Shown: one piece after another, positions 11,384-17,856 of the stretch
How positions within the stretch are numbered: the stretch's first letter is position 1
How the letters are laid out: the number at the start of each line of letters is the position of its first letter
NCBI GenBank assembly: GCA_965215265.1
Contig: OZ244048.1
Span: 3,616,001 to 3,680,000 of the forward strand
Reading direction: 5' to 3'
Source of the DNA: Candidatus Poribacteria bacterium
GTDB lineage: Bacteria > Poribacteria > WGA-4E > WGA-3G
Length of the DNA stretch: 64,000 bases
Made by a program: the position numbers and the translations under genes
The notes under the pieces: model-generated
What the model was told of the DNA's origin: nothing
The model's database searches: none
The model's input: the letters and a program-made list of their open reading frames with translations, nothing else

Positions 11384-12004
11384 CTATGTGCGAAACGTTA
11401 GCCGAGAGAGCAGCAGACCTTTGTCATCTCCATACCACAAATGGGTGCCATCCCACGTCAGACCATGGGGTTCACTGGGACAAGTAACGGCATCAAGAAT
11501 TTCGCCGGATTCTGGATGAATGCGGTAAAGAACATGTTCATTTGTGTCTGCATTCCAAAGTGCTTCGCCATCCCATGCGAGCCCGTGTGCTCGTCCCCCG
11601 GGTGTTTGAAGTTCAGCAAGCATCTCGCCGGTTTCTGGACATTGCTTTACAAAGCGCTGAGTGTTCATGTCGACACTCCACAAGTGTGCACCGTCCCATG
11701 CCAATCCATGGGGGCCCTCTCCGGGGGCTCGGAAGCGGGTAACAACTTTTAATTCCGGGACTGTGAGTTTATAAAAGGTTTGCTGCCAGATGCTGTTGTA
11801 CCAGAGATGTTCGCCATCCCATTCTAAGCCGGCTCCACCTGGGTAGGGCGGCGATAAAGTGCTTTGCACCTCTCCGGTTTGGGCATCAATTTTATGGAGG
11901 GGGCCACCGCCTTCAACACTCCAGATAGCCCGTCCTTGCCATGCGAGTCCGTTCGTGCCGGCTCCGGGAGCCGGAAATTGTTGTGCAATTATTCCTTCAC
12001 GCAT
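11384..12004 (-). CDS. Beta-propeller repeat protein (GLxWDG repeats; glutamine cyclotransferase/Vgb-like fold)
   Basis: Five GL(A/E/T)W(D/Q)G..(L/I)W repeats; ATG 12004 with GGAGG RBS overlapping the queG stop. Confidence 0.7.
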   Translation of the reverse strand: MREGIIAQQFPAPGAGTNGLAWQGRAIWSVEGGGPLHKIDAQTGEVQSTLSPPYPGGAGLEWDGEHLWYNSIWQQTFYKLTVPELKVVTRFRAPGEGPHGLAWDGAHLWSVDMNTQRFVKQCPETGEMLAELQTPGGRAHGLAWDGEALWNADTNEHVLYRIHPESGEILDAVTCPSEPHGLTWDGTHLWYGDDKGLLLSRLTFRT

Positions 12005-13250
12005 TTCTACCTCCACGGTAAGAAGTTCTCCCTGCTTTGCAGAGTGAATTCTTTTTTACCGATGTCAACTTCATTTCTCCGCCTCTTGCGGTTGATATCT
12101 CAAGTGCCTGTTTGAGTTCAGTAATAACCTCCGGTTCATCCTCGACTGCCAAACGAGTTTGTAATATCTGCTTGGCGGTGTCGCCGCCGATTTTCCCAAT
12201 CGCCCAGGCAGCATGTCCGCGAATTAGGGCTTCATCATCGTTTAGCGCAATTTTGAGTGCAGGTAACGCAGCCGGTGCCCCCCAATTGCCGATGGCAACA
12301 AGGACGTTCCGTAGGAATCCTCGGCGTTTAGCGCGCTTGATAGGGCTCCCCTTAAACCTTCTACTAAACTCGGTTTGCGTCATATTGATAAGCGACAGCA
12401 GCTTGGGTGCGAGGTTTCCATCGCGTGGTTGGAAGCCAGGTTCCGTTGTGGGTGTCGCTTTGCTGTTCCATGGACAAACTTCTTGACAGATATCGCATCC
12501 AAAGATAAGATTGCCCATTTTCGAACGAAGTTCCTTGGGGATACTCTCCTTAAGTTCAATTGTTAGATAAGAGATACATAGTCGCGAATCAAGCAGATTC
12601 GGTTCAATAATTGCATCAGTTGGGCAAGCCTCAATACACCGCGTGCAAGTACCGCAGCTGCCTTTCGCTGGTTGTTCTGTCGCTTCTAACTCGACATTGA
12701 TAAGGATCTCAGCGAGAAAATACCATGAACCGGAACGCCAATGAATGAGGTTAGTATTTTTGCCTATCCAACCGAGGCCGGCTTTTTGTGCGTACGCCCG
12801 TTCCAGCATTGGGGCGGTATCGACACAAATTCGGGTCTGGATTTCAGCTTCTGCGGCACGTTTAATAAAAACGACGAGATGTAAAAGACGTTCGCGAATC
12901 ACATCGTGGTAGTCATTCCCCCGGGCATATCGTGATATTTGCCCACGTCCGGGGTCGCGTGCTACCGTGTCAGGTAAATGTGGCGTGTAATAGTTTATGG
13001 CCAGGCTAATAATAGACTTCGCCTCTGTTAAAAGCAGGCGTGGATCTTCCTTGAGCAGCAAATGCTTTTCAAGATAGCCCATTTTTCCGGCGTACCCATT
13101 TTCAAGCCAGCACCGGTACCGGTTAATTGTTTCACTCCGTTCTGCAGGTGTAATTCCAACCAGTGCAAACCCCAATTCGTGTGCGCGGGACTGAATTTTT
13201 TGTGTTAAGGAATTATCCCCGCAAGCGGGGAGAAAGTTCTTAAACGTCAT
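11997..13250 (-). CDS. queG: Epoxyqueuosine reductase
   Basis: ISRYARGNDYH, VDTAPMLER, AGLGWIGKN, CGTCTRCIEACPT, CISYLTIE, FGCDICQEVCPWN, C-terminal HEAT repeats. Confidence 0.95.
   Translation of the reverse strand: MTFKNFLPACGDNSLTQKIQSRAHELGFALVGITPAERSETINRYRCWLENGYAGKMGYLEKHLLLKEDPRLLLTEAKSIISLAINYYTPHLPDTVARDPGRGQISRYARGNDYHDVIRERLLHLVVFIKRAAEAEIQTRICVDTAPMLERAYAQKAGLGWIGKNTNLIHWRSGSWYFLAEILINVELEATEQPAKGSCGTCTRCIEACPTDAIIEPNLLDSRLCISYLTIELKESIPKELRSKMGNLIFGCDICQEVCPWNSKATPTTEPGFQPRDGNLAPKLLSLINMTQTEFSRRFKGSPIKRAKRRGFLRNVLVAIGNWGAPAALPALKIALNDDEALIRGHAAWAIGKIGGDTAKQILQTRLAVEDEPEVITELKQALEISTARGGEMKLTSVKKNSLCKAGRTSYRGGRNA
12020..12051 (-). repeat. Palindromic element copy A, inside queG 3' end
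   Basis: Reverse complement GAATTCACTCTGCAAAGCAGGGAGAACTTCTT matches the 40821/46024 copies with stem-preserving changes. Confidence 0.75.
13209..13241 (+). repeat. Palindromic element copy B, inside queG 5' end
   Basis: GGAATTATCCCCGCAAGCGGGGAGAAAGTTCTT; encodes KNFLPACGDNS on the minus strand. Confidence 0.75.
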
Positions 13251-13256
13251 AATTAC

Positions 13257-14327
13257 TTATGGGAAGGTACCACGTGGATACGAACCGAGGATTTTGACAC
13301 TTTGACACAAAGTTTCAAGTTGTTCAAGTGCAGATTGGAGGTTTTCATCGGCAACGTGGCCATCCATCTCAACGAAGAAAATGTACTCCCACGGTTGAGT
13401 TCGAGAAGGTAAAGACTCCAAGTAGCTCATATTCAGCCGATGTGTCTCTAAAATTCCGAGCACCTCAAACAGGGCCCCGACCTTATCGCGAATTGTAAAG
13501 AAGAGCGAGGTCCGATCTTCGCCGTTCGGTTTCGCTTTATCATTACCGATAACAAAGAAACGAGTGGTATTATTCGGTTCATCCATGATGGAATCGGCAA
13601 CTATCGGCACTTGATAAATGTCACTGGCAAGTTTGCTTGCAATGGCGGCCGTTGCAGGTTCATTGGCGGCACGTTGTGCAGCAACAGAGGTGCTGACTAC
13701 CTCAATTTGTTCAACCGATTTCATAAACTGATTTAACCAGACTCGGCACTGTGCAAAGGGTTGTCGATGCGAGTAAATACAACGAATTTCAGCAAGAGGT
13801 GATTTTGAAAGCAGATGCTGTTTAACGGGTTGGAAAACCTCGGCACAAATCTGCAGGGGTGTTTTTTGGAACTGTTCTAACACGTCTCGGACGGTCCCTT
13901 GTACAGAGTTTTCAATTGCAACAACACCATAGTCGGCTCGTTCCGTCTCCACCTCGGTAAAGATAGCGGTTTGCGGTTGAACAGGAACGAGTTGAACAGA
14001 GGCACCAAAATGGCATAAAGCTGCAAGATGCCCAAAACTCCCAATAGGGCCAAGGAAGGCGACGCGCTCGCGTGCTTGTAATGCGCGCGATGCTGACAAA
14101 ATTTCAGTCCAGATCGCCTCTAGGGCGGCATCTGGGAACACGCCATGGTTTTTGGATTTGAGGCGTTGTATGATTTCCCGGTGCCGATGCGGGACATAAA
14201 CCTTCGTTGTACCAGTTTCTGCTTTTACAGCCCCGACCTGTTTAGAAATTCCTGCCCGTTTTTGTAACAGGGATAAAATCTTGTCGTCAATTTCGTCAAT
14301 CTGCTTGCGGTATTCTTTCAGTTCCAT
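13257..14327 (-). CDS. pheA: Bifunctional chorismate mutase/prephenate dehydratase
   Basis: N-terminal CM (RKQIDEIDDKIL), VAFLGP, IENSVQG, YSHRQ, NNTTRF, ACT domain LESLPS. ATG 14327 preferred to the upstream TTG. Confidence 0.95.
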   Translation of the reverse strand: MELKEYRKQIDEIDDKILSLLQKRAGISKQVGAVKAETGTTKVYVPHRHREIIQRLKSKNHGVFPDAALEAIWTEILSASRALQARERVAFLGPIGSFGHLAALCHFGASVQLVPVQPQTAIFTEVETERADYGVVAIENSVQGTVRDVLEQFQKTPLQICAEVFQPVKQHLLSKSPLAEIRCIYSHRQPFAQCRVWLNQFMKSVEQIEVVSTSVAAQRAANEPATAAIASKLASDIYQVPIVADSIMDEPNNTTRFFVIGNDKAKPNGEDRTSLFFTIRDKVGALFEVLGILETHRLNMSYLESLPSRTQPWEYIFFVEMDGHVADENLQSALEQLETLCQSVKILGSYPRGTFP

Positions 14328-14360
14328 CTTCACAGTATTCAGTTGCAAGTAAGGCGGCGG

Positions 14361-14416
14361 GGCGGGTTTACAAACCGCGCCTAGGCGCTCAAGCGTATTA
14401 AAAAGCCAACCCCGCC
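14361..14416. repeat. REP-like palindrome(s)
   Basis: GGCGGGTTTACAAACCGCGCCTAG plus a half-site AACCCCGCC; related to 43674-43697. Confidence 0.6.
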
Positions 14417-14431
14417 TGGCCGTCTATTCCA

Positions 14432-14677
14432 TTAACCGTTGAGTTTCCTCATGGCGGCAATCATTTCCTTGTCCGATGGGTTGTTTTTGACTATTTCAAC
14501 AAACTCTTCAGCAGTGATCTTATGTTCCTCCAGGAACATTTTATCTTGTGGTCACGGATAGATATAATCCCCGATGATGCCTTGTAATTTGGCATTGGCT
14601 TTATCGGTAATCCGAGCGAGCCACGGGAAATCGCCGATAATCATATCTCTGTGCCGTGGTTTCCAATCTAGAGCCAT
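14432..14677 (-). CDS. DUF5069-like protein, probable selenoprotein (UGA at codon 42)
   Basis: GGAGGTG RBS, ATG 14677; MALDWKPRHRDMIIGDFPWLARITDKANAKLQGIIGDYIYP-UGA-PQDKMFLEEHKITAEEFVEIVKNNPSDKEMIAAMRKLNG-TAA. The pattern PR..WL.R..DK...G..G.Y.Y.CP.D..FL...SD.E fits DUF5069 on both sides of the UGA. Confidence 0.85.
14516..14554 (-). promoter_or_regulatory. Bacterial SECIS-like hairpin immediately 3' of in-frame UGA
   Basis: UGA-CCACAA-GAU-AAA-AUGUUCC-UGGA-GGAACAU-AAG-AUC: 7-bp perfect stem, 4-nt loop with G in position 2, loop 19 nt after UGA. Confidence 0.75.
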
Positions 14678-14694
14678 GGCTTTCACCTCCTTTT

Positions 14695-17600
14695 CTATTG
14701 CGCGTTTTCCTCAAGTTGCCTCAAGGTTTGCTCTAAAAGTTCAACGTAGTGGCCATATTCAGCCCATTCGCCTGCCCGCTGCGCGGTTTGTGCTTGGTTA
14801 AAATAGCGATTTGCTCGTTCGATGAGTAGAGAAAGCGATGTCCCTGGCTTTAGTTCCACCAATGATGTCGCCGTAGAATCCAAAGCCTCATCGGTTGTAC
14901 TTGCTACGCGCGTGCTCCGTCCGAACATATTCACAAGTGCTTCGTCAAGCGTTGCCCCCCACACAACATTCTCTTTGTACCCGACAACAACTCGTCGCAA
15001 TTCTGGAATTGCAGTCTTTTCATCTTCGGATTGGATATAGATAGGCTCAACGTAGAGCAGCGAATTGTTCATAGGTAGAATCAACAGATTACCACGGAGG
15101 ACACGTGAGCCTTGCGTATTCCAGAGACTGATTTGCTGTGAGATATCAGGTTCTTGGCTTATGAAGTTTTCAACCTGCATCGGCCCAGAAACTAGCTCTG
15201 CTTTGGGAAAACGGTAGACAAGGAGCTGCCCGTATTGCGGTCCATCGCATCGAGCGGCTAACCATGCTGTCAGGTTCGGTTTATTTCGCGGGGTAAACGG
15301 TAGCATGAGCATAAATTCTGCCCGTTCTTCCCCCGGCAGCCGGATAACAACGTAATAAGGTTCTACAGGTTGATCATTTGATTGTGCGAATTGAACAACG
15401 GGCCGTTGGGGTGCGAACGGGCTCGCCTGCGGTGGTGGTGCCGCCTGTCTCTGTTGTGCATCAGTGTGGTCATATAATTCCCGTCCAATTTCCCACTGAT
15501 CCTCACCTGCGTAAAACGTTACCGGGTCTTTCATGTGGTAATCCCGGTATACTTGCGCTTGGATAAGGAACATTCCGAGCGGATAACGGATATGTGTCTT
15601 CAATTCAGCAGGCATCTCCTCAAAAGATTTGAAAAGGTTTGGGAAGATTTTGGCATAGCACGCAACAATTGGATCCTGCTCACGCTCCATCATGTAAAAA
15701 ACAACGGTGCCGTCGTAAGCGTCAACAACAACTTTGACTGAATTTCGGATGTAGTTTCCCCAGGGTTCGGCATCTCTCCGTGTTCTCGCGACTTGTCGTA
15801 CGGGGGATTCGGTAATTTTCTGCATTGAAACAGAATACGGATACCGGTGCGTGGCGGTGTAAGCATCAACCATCCAGACGAGTCTTCCATTATGGATGAT
15901 AATGTAAGGATCACCATCATAATGCAAGAAGGGGGCAATTTTATGAATGCGCTTTTTTATATTCCGTTCATAAAGGACCCGGCTCGTAGGTGTAATTTCG
16001 CCCGGCAAGATGAAGTTAATCTGGTTATCAAACTTCAACATGTAAACAAGTTTCCGCCAGAAAGAGTTGAGTGGTACACCGCCTTTACCCTGGTAAGCGT
16101 ACTCGGCGTATTGTTGCCCTTCTTGCGGATAATCAAATTCCAATGCCTGCGGCCGGTCTGGATGCACGATGACGTACCGGTCTGTCCGTTCCCCGTAGTA
16201 GATGCGAGGCCCTGGATTTTCGTTAAATCTGTGCGGCCATTGGGATTCATAACTAATTGGTGGTAAACCGCGGATGTACATGTTCGGTTTACCGTTATCA
16301 ATTTCATTCACTGGACTGAGAACTGCCCCGTAGCCGTGTGTGTAGGTGTACGTTTGCTTATACCAATCATTTCTGATTTCTGCTGGGAGTTCATCGATAT
16401 TGAGTTCACGTGCGGACAACATCACTTGCCGGATCTCATCGTCAACGGTGTATCGATCGATATCAACATCAAAGAAGTCGTATTGCGAGCGTAATTCTTG
16501 TAACTGCCGGAACGTTCTACGCAAGGGGCGCCAATCCCAGAGGCGGATGCTGTTGAGAACTGGTTCGTTTTCGGAGCTCGTTATCTCTTCATAAACGAGT
16601 TCTTCTGTGAGTGGGTATTCCTCTTCTGTCACCGTGTCATCCTCTAACCCATACGCTTGGAGCGTTGCCTTAATGTTATAGTTAATAAATTTCGCCTCTA
16701 AATCCTGTTTCCTTGGTTCAACACGCCACTTCTGTATTAGTATTGGGTAGAACTGGCCGAGGAGGGCCGCAACGAGAAATACCGCGAGTCCGCCGAACGC
16801 GAATCTGCTGCGGCGCAAGAAGATGCTAATAACAAAAACCAGGGCACAGAGAACCGTAAGAACTTGTAGAATTTGCAATACAGGCAAGCGTGCATGAATT
16901 GCAGCGTACCCGCCCCCACCGCGTACTACTTCGTTTGAGGTATACAACAGGTCAAACATGGCAAATCGATAATTCCATGCTCGAAACAGGAGTGTCAAGG
17001 CAACTAAAGCAAACAGGTGTGCTTTGACCGGAAACGGAGGTTGGAACCGTAATTGATTCGTATCGCCGGTGATTAACCCATGGAAAAAGTAGATGGCAGT
17101 GGAAAATACGGTTATCAACAAGAAAAGACCGAAGAAGGTTCCGACAACGTAACGTTCTAAGGGCATTTTGAAGACATAGTAAGTGACAGGCTTACTGAAA
17201 ATTGGGTCGCGAGCGGAAACAGTGAAAACGGTTTTTTGCCCAGTGTCTACCTGAATAGGTGTATTGAGACGGATACCGTTTTCAAGGACCGATTCAACAC
17301 GTGCTGTCTGATCGGTTCCATCTACTTGGACGATGATTTCATCGCCGACTTTGATGTTCTTCCCTTCTAACTCAGATGCAGACACGGGAATTTCAGTCGA
17401 GTTAAGTTCTCCTTCTACAAGAAGCGGTGTGGCAGTGCGGAAATCCAGCCCCTCCGTATGCCGATAGCGTAGATAAACCTCCCACCGGTCACTCGCTGTA
17501 TACCCCATTAGGATACTGAAGAGGACAGCAAGAACCAGTAGTCCCCCGTAAATTAACTTACGAGTGTTGCCACCGGCACCTATCAATTCTGTTCCGCCCA

Positions 17601-17856
17601 TAAAAGTGGGGCTCAGTTGTGCTGGCGTGAGCCGATAGACTAAGATAAGATTTACGATGAGGATGCCCAAATAGACAATGCCAACAACCGTCCCAATAAA
17701 AATTTTGGTGAAGAGAATTTTAGTGTAAACCTCGAGGTGATCTATCATCTTAAACCATAGATAATCAGGATAAATATTAATCCAGACGGTGGAAAGCCCC
17801 CCGAGGATTGCTAGAACTACAACTGTGATAAAAAAGCGCTTAATGCGTGAATCCAT
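14695..17856 (-). CDS. UPF0182 family membrane protein
   Basis: DYLWF, DPIF..YYVF, IRLWDWRPL, DVDIDRY, YTHGYG, PRIYYGE, NYIRNSVKVVVDAYDG, LLYVEPIY. Confidence 0.95.
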   Translation of the reverse strand: MDSRIKRFFITVVVLAILGGLSTVWINIYPDYLWFKMIDHLEVYTKILFTKIFIGTVVGIVYLGILIVNLILVYRLTPAQLSPTFMGGTELIGAGGNTRKLIYGGLLVLAVLFSILMGYTASDRWEVYLRYRHTEGLDFRTATPLLVEGELNSTEIPVSASELEGKNIKVGDEIIVQVDGTDQTARVESVLENGIRLNTPIQVDTGQKTVFTVSARDPIFSKPVTYYVFKMPLERYVVGTFFGLFLLITVFSTAIYFFHGLITGDTNQLRFQPPFPVKAHLFALVALTLLFRAWNYRFAMFDLLYTSNEVVRGGGGYAAIHARLPVLQILQVLTVLCALVFVISIFLRRSRFAFGGLAVFLVAALLGQFYPILIQKWRVEPRKQDLEAKFINYNIKATLQAYGLEDDTVTEEEYPLTEELVYEEITSSENEPVLNSIRLWDWRPLRRTFRQLQELRSQYDFFDVDIDRYTVDDEIRQVMLSARELNIDELPAEIRNDWYKQTYTYTHGYGAVLSPVNEIDNGKPNMYIRGLPPISYESQWPHRFNENPGPRIYYGERTDRYVIVHPDRPQALEFDYPQEGQQYAEYAYQGKGGVPLNSFWRKLVYMLKFDNQINFILPGEITPTSRVLYERNIKKRIHKIAPFLHYDGDPYIIIHNGRLVWMVDAYTATHRYPYSVSMQKITESPVRQVARTRRDAEPWGNYIRNSVKVVVDAYDGTVVFYMMEREQDPIVACYAKIFPNLFKSFEEMPAELKTHIRYPLGMFLIQAQVYRDYHMKDPVTFYAGEDQWEIGRELYDHTDAQQRQAAPPPQASPFAPQRPVVQFAQSNDQPVEPYYVVIRLPGEERAEFMLMLPFTPRNKPNLTAWLAARCDGPQYGQLLVYRFPKAELVSGPMQVENFISQEPDISQQISLWNTQGSRVLRGNLLILPMNNSLLYVEPIYIQSEDEKTAIPELRRVVVGYKENVVWGATLDEALVNMFGRSTRVASTTDEALDSTATSLVELKPGTSLSLLIERANRYFNQAQTAQRAGEWAEYGHYVELLEQTLRQLEENAQ

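Follow-up and report, generated by a model that had tools for sequence, protein, structure and literature searches.

An in-frame UGA in a DUF5069 gene of Poribacteria and its probable reading as selenocysteine

Does an in-frame UGA end a small gene of Candidatus Poribacteria, a group of sponge symbionts, or is it read as an amino acid? The question arises from the window analyzed here, the whole stretch of 64,000 nucleotides (nt) from position 3,616,001 to position 3,680,000 of contig OZ244048.1 (assembly GCA_965215265.1). In this window, an 81-codon frame on the minus strand runs from an ATG at 14677-14675 to a TAA at 14434-14432 and is broken by a single TGA at codon 42 (14554-14552). An original prediction held that this frame, which fills the gap between the genes for a UPF0182 protein and PheA behind a strong ribosome-binding site, encodes a selenoprotein of the DUF5069 family (PF16798), with UGA in place of a conserved Cys codon and a hairpin resembling a selenocysteine insertion sequence (SECIS) just beyond it. 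The elements lie where they were described. A Shine-Dalgarno sequence, AGGAGG, can be read directly 8 nt before the ATG (14691-14686, minus strand), and the TGA stands in the context DYIYP-U-PQD, where U is selenocysteine (Sec), with 39 codons remaining after it. The hairpin, AUGUUCC-UGGA-GGAACAU (14539-14522, minus strand), has a perfect stem of 7 bp and a 4-nt UGGA loop that begins 19 nt after the UGA.

We conclude, from sequence comparison, that the locus is very probably a genuine gene, translated into a selenoprotein of 81 residues in which UGA 42 is decoded as Sec. The conservation of the TGA, the Cys found in homologues, the hairpin, the Sec machinery of the genome, and purifying selection on the codons past the UGA all agree with the predicted insertion of Sec. 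A ribosome arriving at UGA codon 42 would meet a hairpin 15 nt farther on, the UGGA loop of which would recruit SelB carrying Sec-tRNA(Sec); Sec would then be inserted and 39 more codons translated. That the recoding would follow this standard bacterial mechanism is strongly supported, and DUF5069 would almost certainly add an uncatalogued family to the bacterial selenoproteins.

The in-frame UGA and the codons beyond it

The TGA is shared far beyond the genome in which it was noticed. Within the order, an orthologue with exactly one TGA was present in 61 of 61 genomes (13 genera, four families) at 65-86% protein identity, and U occupies the corresponding codon in all 61 extracted orthologues, within the motif Y-[IV]-Y-P-U-[PA]. 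A scan of the Poribacteria sequences in GenBank found U in 80 of 80 loci, 28 of which repeat the order set, and the union of the two sets holds 113 distinct coding sequences. The hairpin, as well as the TGA, is kept in related genomes across both sets. Phylum-wide, the gene occurs in 168 of 176 genomes, with one TGA in all but one of the matches listed; a further 27 phylum matches lie outside that list. Family by family, every orthologue among the matches listed carries the TGA in f1 to f4, f6, f7, and f9.

The bare fact of an in-frame stop is all that speaks for a sequencing or assembly error, or for a nonsense mutation confined to one strain or genome. Positions 14380-14720 were reproduced without difference by contigs from four runs of four studies, one of which may be the source sample. 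Together with the conservation of the TGA across the order and across GenBank, this agreement excludes an error or a private nonsense mutation, an explanation to which we give a negligible probability. In eight loci of one genus (L056-L063; family f2, genus g10), about 14 residues rich in Lys and Ser extend the C terminus of the protein, up to a second TGA, so that a single gene uses TGA both as a Sec codon and as a stop.

The product of reading through the UGA resembles a known family. The Pfam model DUF5069 matches it across the TGA, at residues 7-78, with an E value of 6.1e-13 and a score of 49.5 bits (cut-off, 27 bits), and scores 43.5 bits on the raw DNA. The match covers positions 4-75 of the 133 in the profile. 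The whole DUF5069 domain is thus not present, and the protein is, by this match, a short form corresponding to the N-terminal half of the domain. A short-form subgroup with Cys occurs in other phyla. No NCBIfam model matched the read-through protein at E values up to 1, and none was found for its relatives. An exhaustive profile search returned 177 relatives; the residue counts that follow come from the 147 matches listed. Of these, 11 end at the residue directly before the U42 site, indicating that they were cut at the TGA, and one (P0044) is a fragment that stops short of it. Opposite U42, the 147 aligned stretches, from 135 of the listed relatives, have Cys in 124, Ser in 11, and other residues in 12, among them a single Trp, which stems from a TGA translated as Trp. 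The structure PDB 3omd, a 145-residue protein deposited as "Uncharacterized protein," also has Cys at the aligned site. The alignment of U with Cys was thus as predicted, and the motif at the site can be written Y-x-Y-P-[C/U]-P-x-D. As a signature of the family, the predicted pattern Y.Y.CP.D holds for most members but fails for a three-domain paralogue in the same genome, which has Y.YG.DSG.D.

The codons past the UGA also bear the marks of a protein-coding sequence. Pairwise ratios of nonsynonymous to synonymous substitution rates (dN/dS) were 0.06 for codons 1-41 and 0.12 for codons 43-79, as calculated from pairs with unsaturated dS (181 and 286 of 400 sampled pairs). By this measure, the downstream codons are under purifying selection, as expected if they are translated. 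A separate open reading frame (ORF) of 35 codons starting at Met47 was considered and rejected. Met47 is the sole candidate start for such a frame and is kept in only 59% of orthologues, which makes a separate downstream ORF unlikely.

It could be argued that UGA 42 is nevertheless a true stop, leaving a 41-residue peptide or a decaying pseudogene, and that the region downstream is conserved for another purpose, for example as an RNA leader of pheA. In keeping with such a leader, pheA comes next, on that strand, in 56 of the 61 loci examined in the order and in 11 of 12 further loci, from the sister order, but a terminator-like site stands between it and the DUF5069 gene. The 39 codons past the UGA match both DUF5069 and 3omd in frame, although public gene calls end at codon 41, and at a dN/dS of 0.12 they allow synonymous change freely outside the hairpin. 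The hairpin itself scores as terminator-like on the opposite strand. Moreover, orthologues with Cys at the site are uninterrupted and of equal length, and a nonsense mutation would not be expected to persist in 113 distinct sequences. We therefore regard a true stop at codon 42 as very improbable.

The hairpin in Sec and Cys forms of the gene

Counted from the U of the UGA, the stem of the hairpin occupies positions +16 to +22 and +27 to +33, and the loop occupies +23 to +26. Its identification as a SECIS element draws on folding, on the conservation of its pairs, and on synonymous sites that are frozen. The conserved core, GUUCC-UGGA-GGAAC (5 bp), begins 15 nt after the TGA and was kept in all 56 distinct rows of the alignment. 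Within this core, the two inner-pair substitutions are G-U wobbles, and a GC pair is replaced by AU in one row and by GU in another. The outer pairs covary, from AU to GC in 4 rows and from UA to AU in 3 rows, and the two of them are unpaired in 21 and 14 rows. In four loci of genus g8 (L068-L071; family f3), an inserted codon separates the UGA and the hairpin by 3 nt more than elsewhere, and the stems there carry compensatory changes (GUGUUCC/GGAACAC and GUAUUCC/GGAAUAC).

Codon usage over the same segment is frozen. Among the 61 orthologues of the order, codons 48-51 are TTC in 61, CTG in 60, GAG in 61, and GAA in 60. Synonymous entropy is about zero at these four codons only; it reaches 1.9-2.2 bits at other Leu codons and about 1 bit at other Glu and Phe codons.

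As given in the accessible text of a recent review, the bacterial SECIS (bSECIS) model calls for a loop of 3-9 nt, a stem of 4-16 bp, a G in the first two loop positions, a distance of 16-37 nt from the UGA, and a folding energy of -7.5 kcal/mol or lower (PMC13188914). The hairpin, predicted to be SECIS-like with an early loop G, falls within the loop, stem, G-position, and spacing limits of that model, with a G at loop position 2 followed by another G (PMC13188914). Folded alone, the 18-nt hairpin has an energy of -6.9 kcal/mol, and 4 of 200 shuffled sequences fold as well; for the 42 nt starting from the UGA, the energy is -9.8 kcal/mol, equaled by 2 of 200 shuffles. By predicted folding energy, then, the hairpin exceeds chance only modestly, and the strong evidence for it is comparative.

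A search for Rfam families in positions 14000-15000 gave nothing meaningful, the best hit being a snoRNA model at an E value of 0.071. A terminator on the plus strand at the site of the hairpin was also considered and rejected; the site is inside the conserved frame, and no substantial plus-strand ORF ends there, the plus-strand frames listed being short and without support.

Natural replacements of Sec by Cys provide the comparative test. In family f8 of the sister order (loci L177, L179, L181, L183, and L185-L188), the frame is uninterrupted in 8 of 8 genomes, with TGC at the site in each of the 7 sequences read. In these uninterrupted orthologues, which have the same length as the Sec form, the residues F-L-E-E encoded by the hairpin have drifted to FLEK, FLER, FLQR, or WLQK, and no hairpin remains. 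Both selA and tRNA-Sec are still present in 7 of 8 of the f8 genomes, so the difference between Sec and Cys does not stem from a loss of the Sec trait. Families f6, f7, and f9 have kept both the TGA and the hairpin.

A further 40 loci came from metagenomes scanned with a more distantly related, TGA-containing sequence; the motif was located in 38, of which 21 have TGA and 17 have TGC or TGT. The TGA forms of a second Sec clade (L194-L209) have the hairpin (A)AGUUCC-UGGA-GGAACU(U). One Sec form that lies inside a Cys clade, L225, has a different 7-bp stem at the same position (CGGUUUC/GAAGCCG) with the loop UGGAU. Overall, a stem of at least 5 bp with an NGGN(N) loop was found in 83 of 83 Sec forms versus 1 of 24 Cys forms, and a hairpin in a fixed register was found in 82 of 83 Sec forms versus none of 24 Cys forms. 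These counts leave out L188, L216, and L233, in which the motif was missed, L078 and L079, which have N in the sequence, and L226, which meets a contig end. In a quick tree of the Sec and Cys forms (75 columns), four to five Sec/Cys changes are needed. The tree gives three independent contrasts on well-supported branches, and the hairpin goes with Sec in all three.

Several observations weigh against reading the hairpin as a SECIS element and the UGA as a Sec codon. With only three independent contrasts among sequences that are kin, a sign test (p = 0.25) cannot reach significance. One Cys form has an NGGN loop, and two retain all five pairs at the SECIS site, with the loop UCGC. As the residues F-L-E-E are conserved in the Sec forms, part of the nucleotide conservation is at the level of the protein. 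A 71-nt context folds no better than its shuffles (z = -0.06). Finally, the hairpin alone, at -6.9 kcal/mol, falls short of the model limit of -7.5 kcal/mol, which is passed only with the lower pairs; the three lower pairs that give -9.8 kcal/mol are not conserved, and an orthologue with the 5-bp core alone has -5.7 kcal/mol.

The Cys forms L220, L223, L228, and L232, which belong to the clade of L225, keep 4-5 of 5 stem pairs with UCGC or UGGC loops, and their stem could be a relic of a Sec-containing ancestor or could be a stem that favored a later gain of Sec. The Cys forms with five pairs and a UCGC loop may likewise be relics, or the pairing may be a consequence of the codons for R-F-L-x-E-A.

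Selenocysteine machinery and annotation status

The genome has what the decoding of UGA as Sec would need. All four of selA, selB, selC, and selD, the genes that the original prediction asked to be confirmed, were found: selA (589 bits), selB (336 bits), tRNA-Sec (80 bits) directly downstream of selB, and selD (360 bits), which has an in-frame TGA of its own. All scored above curated cut-offs. TGA is otherwise a normal stop in this genome, where it ends 257 of 1,265 open frames of at least 400 codons.

At least 11 genes of the genome, the DUF5069 gene included, carry a UGA at a Cys-type site. One in-frame TGA each was found in selD, an fdhA-like molybdopterin oxidoreductase gene, six genes of the AhpC/TSA family, a SelW-like gene, and a thioredoxin-like gene. 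Selenoprotein-type genes with an in-frame TGA lie at 4044300-4045226, 1440686-1441954, 1414331-1415149, 4162962-4163333, 2904513-2904884, 3574094-3574480, 2395927-2396262, 1624103-1624318, and 4806563-4806814 (coordinates on G000:C1, all outside the window). In most such genes, a short hairpin with a G-containing loop lies 13-19 nt downstream of the TGA; for Prx1, a simple finder located none. The SECIS hairpins of the genome have stems of 5-7 bp starting from +13 to +19 and G-rich loops of 3-5 nt. These include GUUGCC-GGGCU-GGCAGC from +16 in fdhA, a hairpin from +15 in selD, and a hairpin from +13 with the loop UGGAU in the thioredoxin-like gene. The predicted geometry of the DUF5069 hairpin is the same as that of these three. 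Within the window itself, a scan for hairpins followed by open frames detected no other selenoprotein gene, its six other hits all being low-complexity, off-frame translations.

This setting bears on a further explanation, in which UGA 42 is read through but not as Sec, whether by a tRNA for Trp or Cys that is near-cognate to UGA or through a local recoding signal that does not involve SelB. Here the evidence begins with automatic gene calls. In a large protein collection, 12 of 17 matches have Trp at the site, and the other 5, two of them NCBI entries, are cut at codon 41. The Trp entries are on short contigs, and two of them (P0011 and P0013) also read the terminal TGA of the gene as Trp; they were probably called under an alternative genetic code. 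Also in favor of such read-through, classical SECIS elements are stronger than this hairpin. The GG of its loop, however, is what models of SelB binding require, in the accessible text of the review (PMC13188914). Further points against such read-through are that TGA serves as a normal stop in the genome, that homologues have Cys rather than Trp at the site, and that the genome has the full Sec machinery along with at least 10 other genes with in-frame TGA at Cys-type sites, most with a similar hairpin. Read-through by anything other than Sec insertion thus seems highly unlikely, and we retain Sec as the residue at position 42.

The claim that standard gene callers would miss the gene fits what the databases hold, as every public copy that we saw was either cut at codon 41 or given a Trp. 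Translation table 11 yields two separate pieces, at 14552..14686 and 14432..14539. Its annotation is probably wrong in the majority of Poribacteria genomes, as well as in related contigs from marine metagenomes.

The literature contains little that touches this protein. A full-text search for DUF5069 and PF16798 found no paper, although a mention under another name is possible and supplements were outside the search. A review of May 2026 tabulates 119 selenoprotein families with model accessions (PMC13188914), and PF16798, DUF5069, and Poribacteria are absent from its whole text, including Table 1. DUF5069 is also not among the nine new selenoprotein families described in the accessible text of the deep-Sep paper (PMC12013277). 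The statement that DUF5069 is not a described selenoprotein family thus agrees with its absence from the 119-family table and with the lack of a naming paper in our search. For the structure 3omd, the papers listed by a search dealt, judged by title and abstract, with 3-O-methyldopa, 3-O-methylglucose, and other unrelated topics, and nothing relevant was found that joined selenoproteins and sponge symbionts under those terms. Elsewhere, selA and selB are described as enriched in bins of sponge symbionts (accessible text of PMC5649159), and Sec-containing Group 4 hydrogenases are described in Poribacteria (accessible text of PMC13582414).

Gene neighborhood, possible role, and known systems

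The neighbors of the gene are all on the minus strand. Upstream lies the gene for a UPF0182 membrane protein (14695-17856; Pfam, 801 bits), the TAG stop of which is 17 nt from the ATG of the DUF5069 gene. In most orthologues, the upstream frame has K-E-V over the AGGAGG site, so the purine-rich ribosome-binding site is kept. Downstream, a terminator-like hairpin with a T-run (14394..14421), found by a consensus scan as a pattern match, starts 10 nt past the stop codon. It is followed by pheA (13257-14348; chorismate mutase, prephenate dehydratase, and ACT domains in Pfam) and, directly downstream of that, by a gene for a QueG-like epoxyqueuosine reductase with C-terminal HEAT repeats (11997-13250).

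Of these neighbors, UPF0182 was recognized by its C terminus upstream of the orthologue in 52 of the order's 61 loci and in none of 12 further loci, from 11 sister-order genomes and G127, an own-family genome in which the locus is cut at a contig end. In the metagenome loci, no pheA was seen beside the second Sec clade, the neighbors of which encode a solute-binding protein and an HDOD response regulator. The linkage to pheA, kept across the class but absent from the other Sec clade, reads as inherited gene order rather than a functional tie.

Within the order, TGA occurs only in the short form beside pheA; full-length, two-domain, and three-domain paralogues never carry a stop. Among 41 genomes searched, 35 have 4-9 DUF5069 domain matches each, and five of the remaining six, all of genus g8, have 1-2. 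Fourteen model genomes, used as controls, have none. Full-length Poribacteria paralogues of 139-162 residues have Y-x-Y-D-C-P-L-D in 4 of 6 loci checked. The three-domain paralogue of the same genome (427 residues; G000:C1:2197852-2199102; L023:1054-2337, minus strand) consists of three tandem full-length DUF5069 domains, all without the conserved Cys and with Y-x-Y-G-x-D-S-G-x-D instead; its neighbors are a DUF4403 gene and an unassigned ORF. The DUF5069 module is also fused to cupin domains in four proteins and, in single proteins, to a NuoF-like FMN/Fe-S module, the C-terminal domain of a CO-dehydrogenase flavoprotein, a methyltransferase, DUF2249, and a dienelactone hydrolase. Some of the fusions from metagenomes could be gene-call artifacts. 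In a protein atlas, the natural Cys orthologue led only to DUF5069 clusters of Verrucomicrobiota and Vulcanimicrobiota (scores, 0.84-0.87), none of which hints at a function.

Few signs in a sequence by itself mark a residue as chemically reactive, and Sec in place of Cys is among them. The protein has no Cys at all, which leaves U42 as its lone reactive-type chalcogen residue. The loop that holds it is flanked by Pro, and a stretch predicted to be helical comes next. With no other Cys present, Sec42 probably serves by itself as a nucleophilic or redox center, and the redox motifs UxxC and CxxU are absent because they would need a second Cys. R22, D25, K26, R28, and D45 are nearly invariant across the DUF5069 family and are shared with 3omd. 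The lone Sec, these invariant residues, and the fusions fit a small module for redox chemistry or for the transfer of sulfur or selenium, one that would act together with a partner.

The original prediction took the residue to be redox-active or metal-binding, which may be so. As to what it does, we tentatively suggest a redox or sulfur/selenium-transfer role, in which the protein might be a 1-Cys-type oxidoreductase or a persulfide or perselenide carrier that hands its load to a partner. Against this suggestion, no functional clue was found among the neighbors, whether UPF0182, pheA, and queG in the window, those of the second Sec clade, or those of the three-domain paralogue. A broader proposal, which we hold just as tentatively, is that Sec42 marks the catalytic center of DUF5069 and that the 75-residue module forms an autonomous domain that acts in redox chemistry or carries sulfur or selenium by way of a single selenol or thiol; it would be used alone, in tandem, or fused, and its Sec versions may have been gained or lost several times in marine lineages (at least three to five switches).

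The single-cysteine sulfur carriers TusA and SirA, with their Cys-Pro motif "CPxP," offer one comparison. In them, too, a single reactive Cys is conserved, with Pro right after it and without a resolving Cys, and one DUF5069 homologue is fused to DUF2249. The parallel goes no further than a resemblance. PDB 3omd, a solved member of the family, offers another comparison. The nearly invariant R22, D25, K26, R28, and D45 and the motif Y-x-Y-P-C-P-x-D are the same, whereas the gene described here covers only positions 4-75 of the 133-position profile and has Sec in place of Cys. For DUF5069, a family with a solved but unexplained structure, the Sec thus defines a residue to mutate and assay.

The gene would add to the selenium-rich proteome of a sponge symbiont. 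The insertion mechanism is itself standard and no surprise in kind. Like the bacterial genes with a SECIS element in the coding region, of which fdhF of Escherichia coli is the prototype, this gene has UGA at a Cys position, Cys homologues, selA, selB, selC, and selD in the genome, and a small, G-rich apical loop 16-37 nt past the UGA. Its element differs in being small, with 5 conserved pairs (7 in the window), a 4-nt loop, and no bulged base.

Close parallels are predicted single-Sec families such as DUF523, DUF3179, and DUF1858, which, in the accessible text of their sources (PMC13188914, Table 1; PMC12013277), have the same combination of a Sec/Cys pair, TGA-containing orthologues, and a bSECIS element. 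Like DUF5069, they are functionally uncharacterized families with a single Sec and with Cys homologues. DUF5069 differs in belonging to another fold family, in having no second Cys, and in the depth of its support, which extends to more than 110 distinct sequences and includes natural Cys revertants that lack the hairpin. Taken together, the comparative support for a selenoprotein gene at this locus is unusually clean, and the previously unannotated gene takes its place as a probable member of a well-known kind of system.

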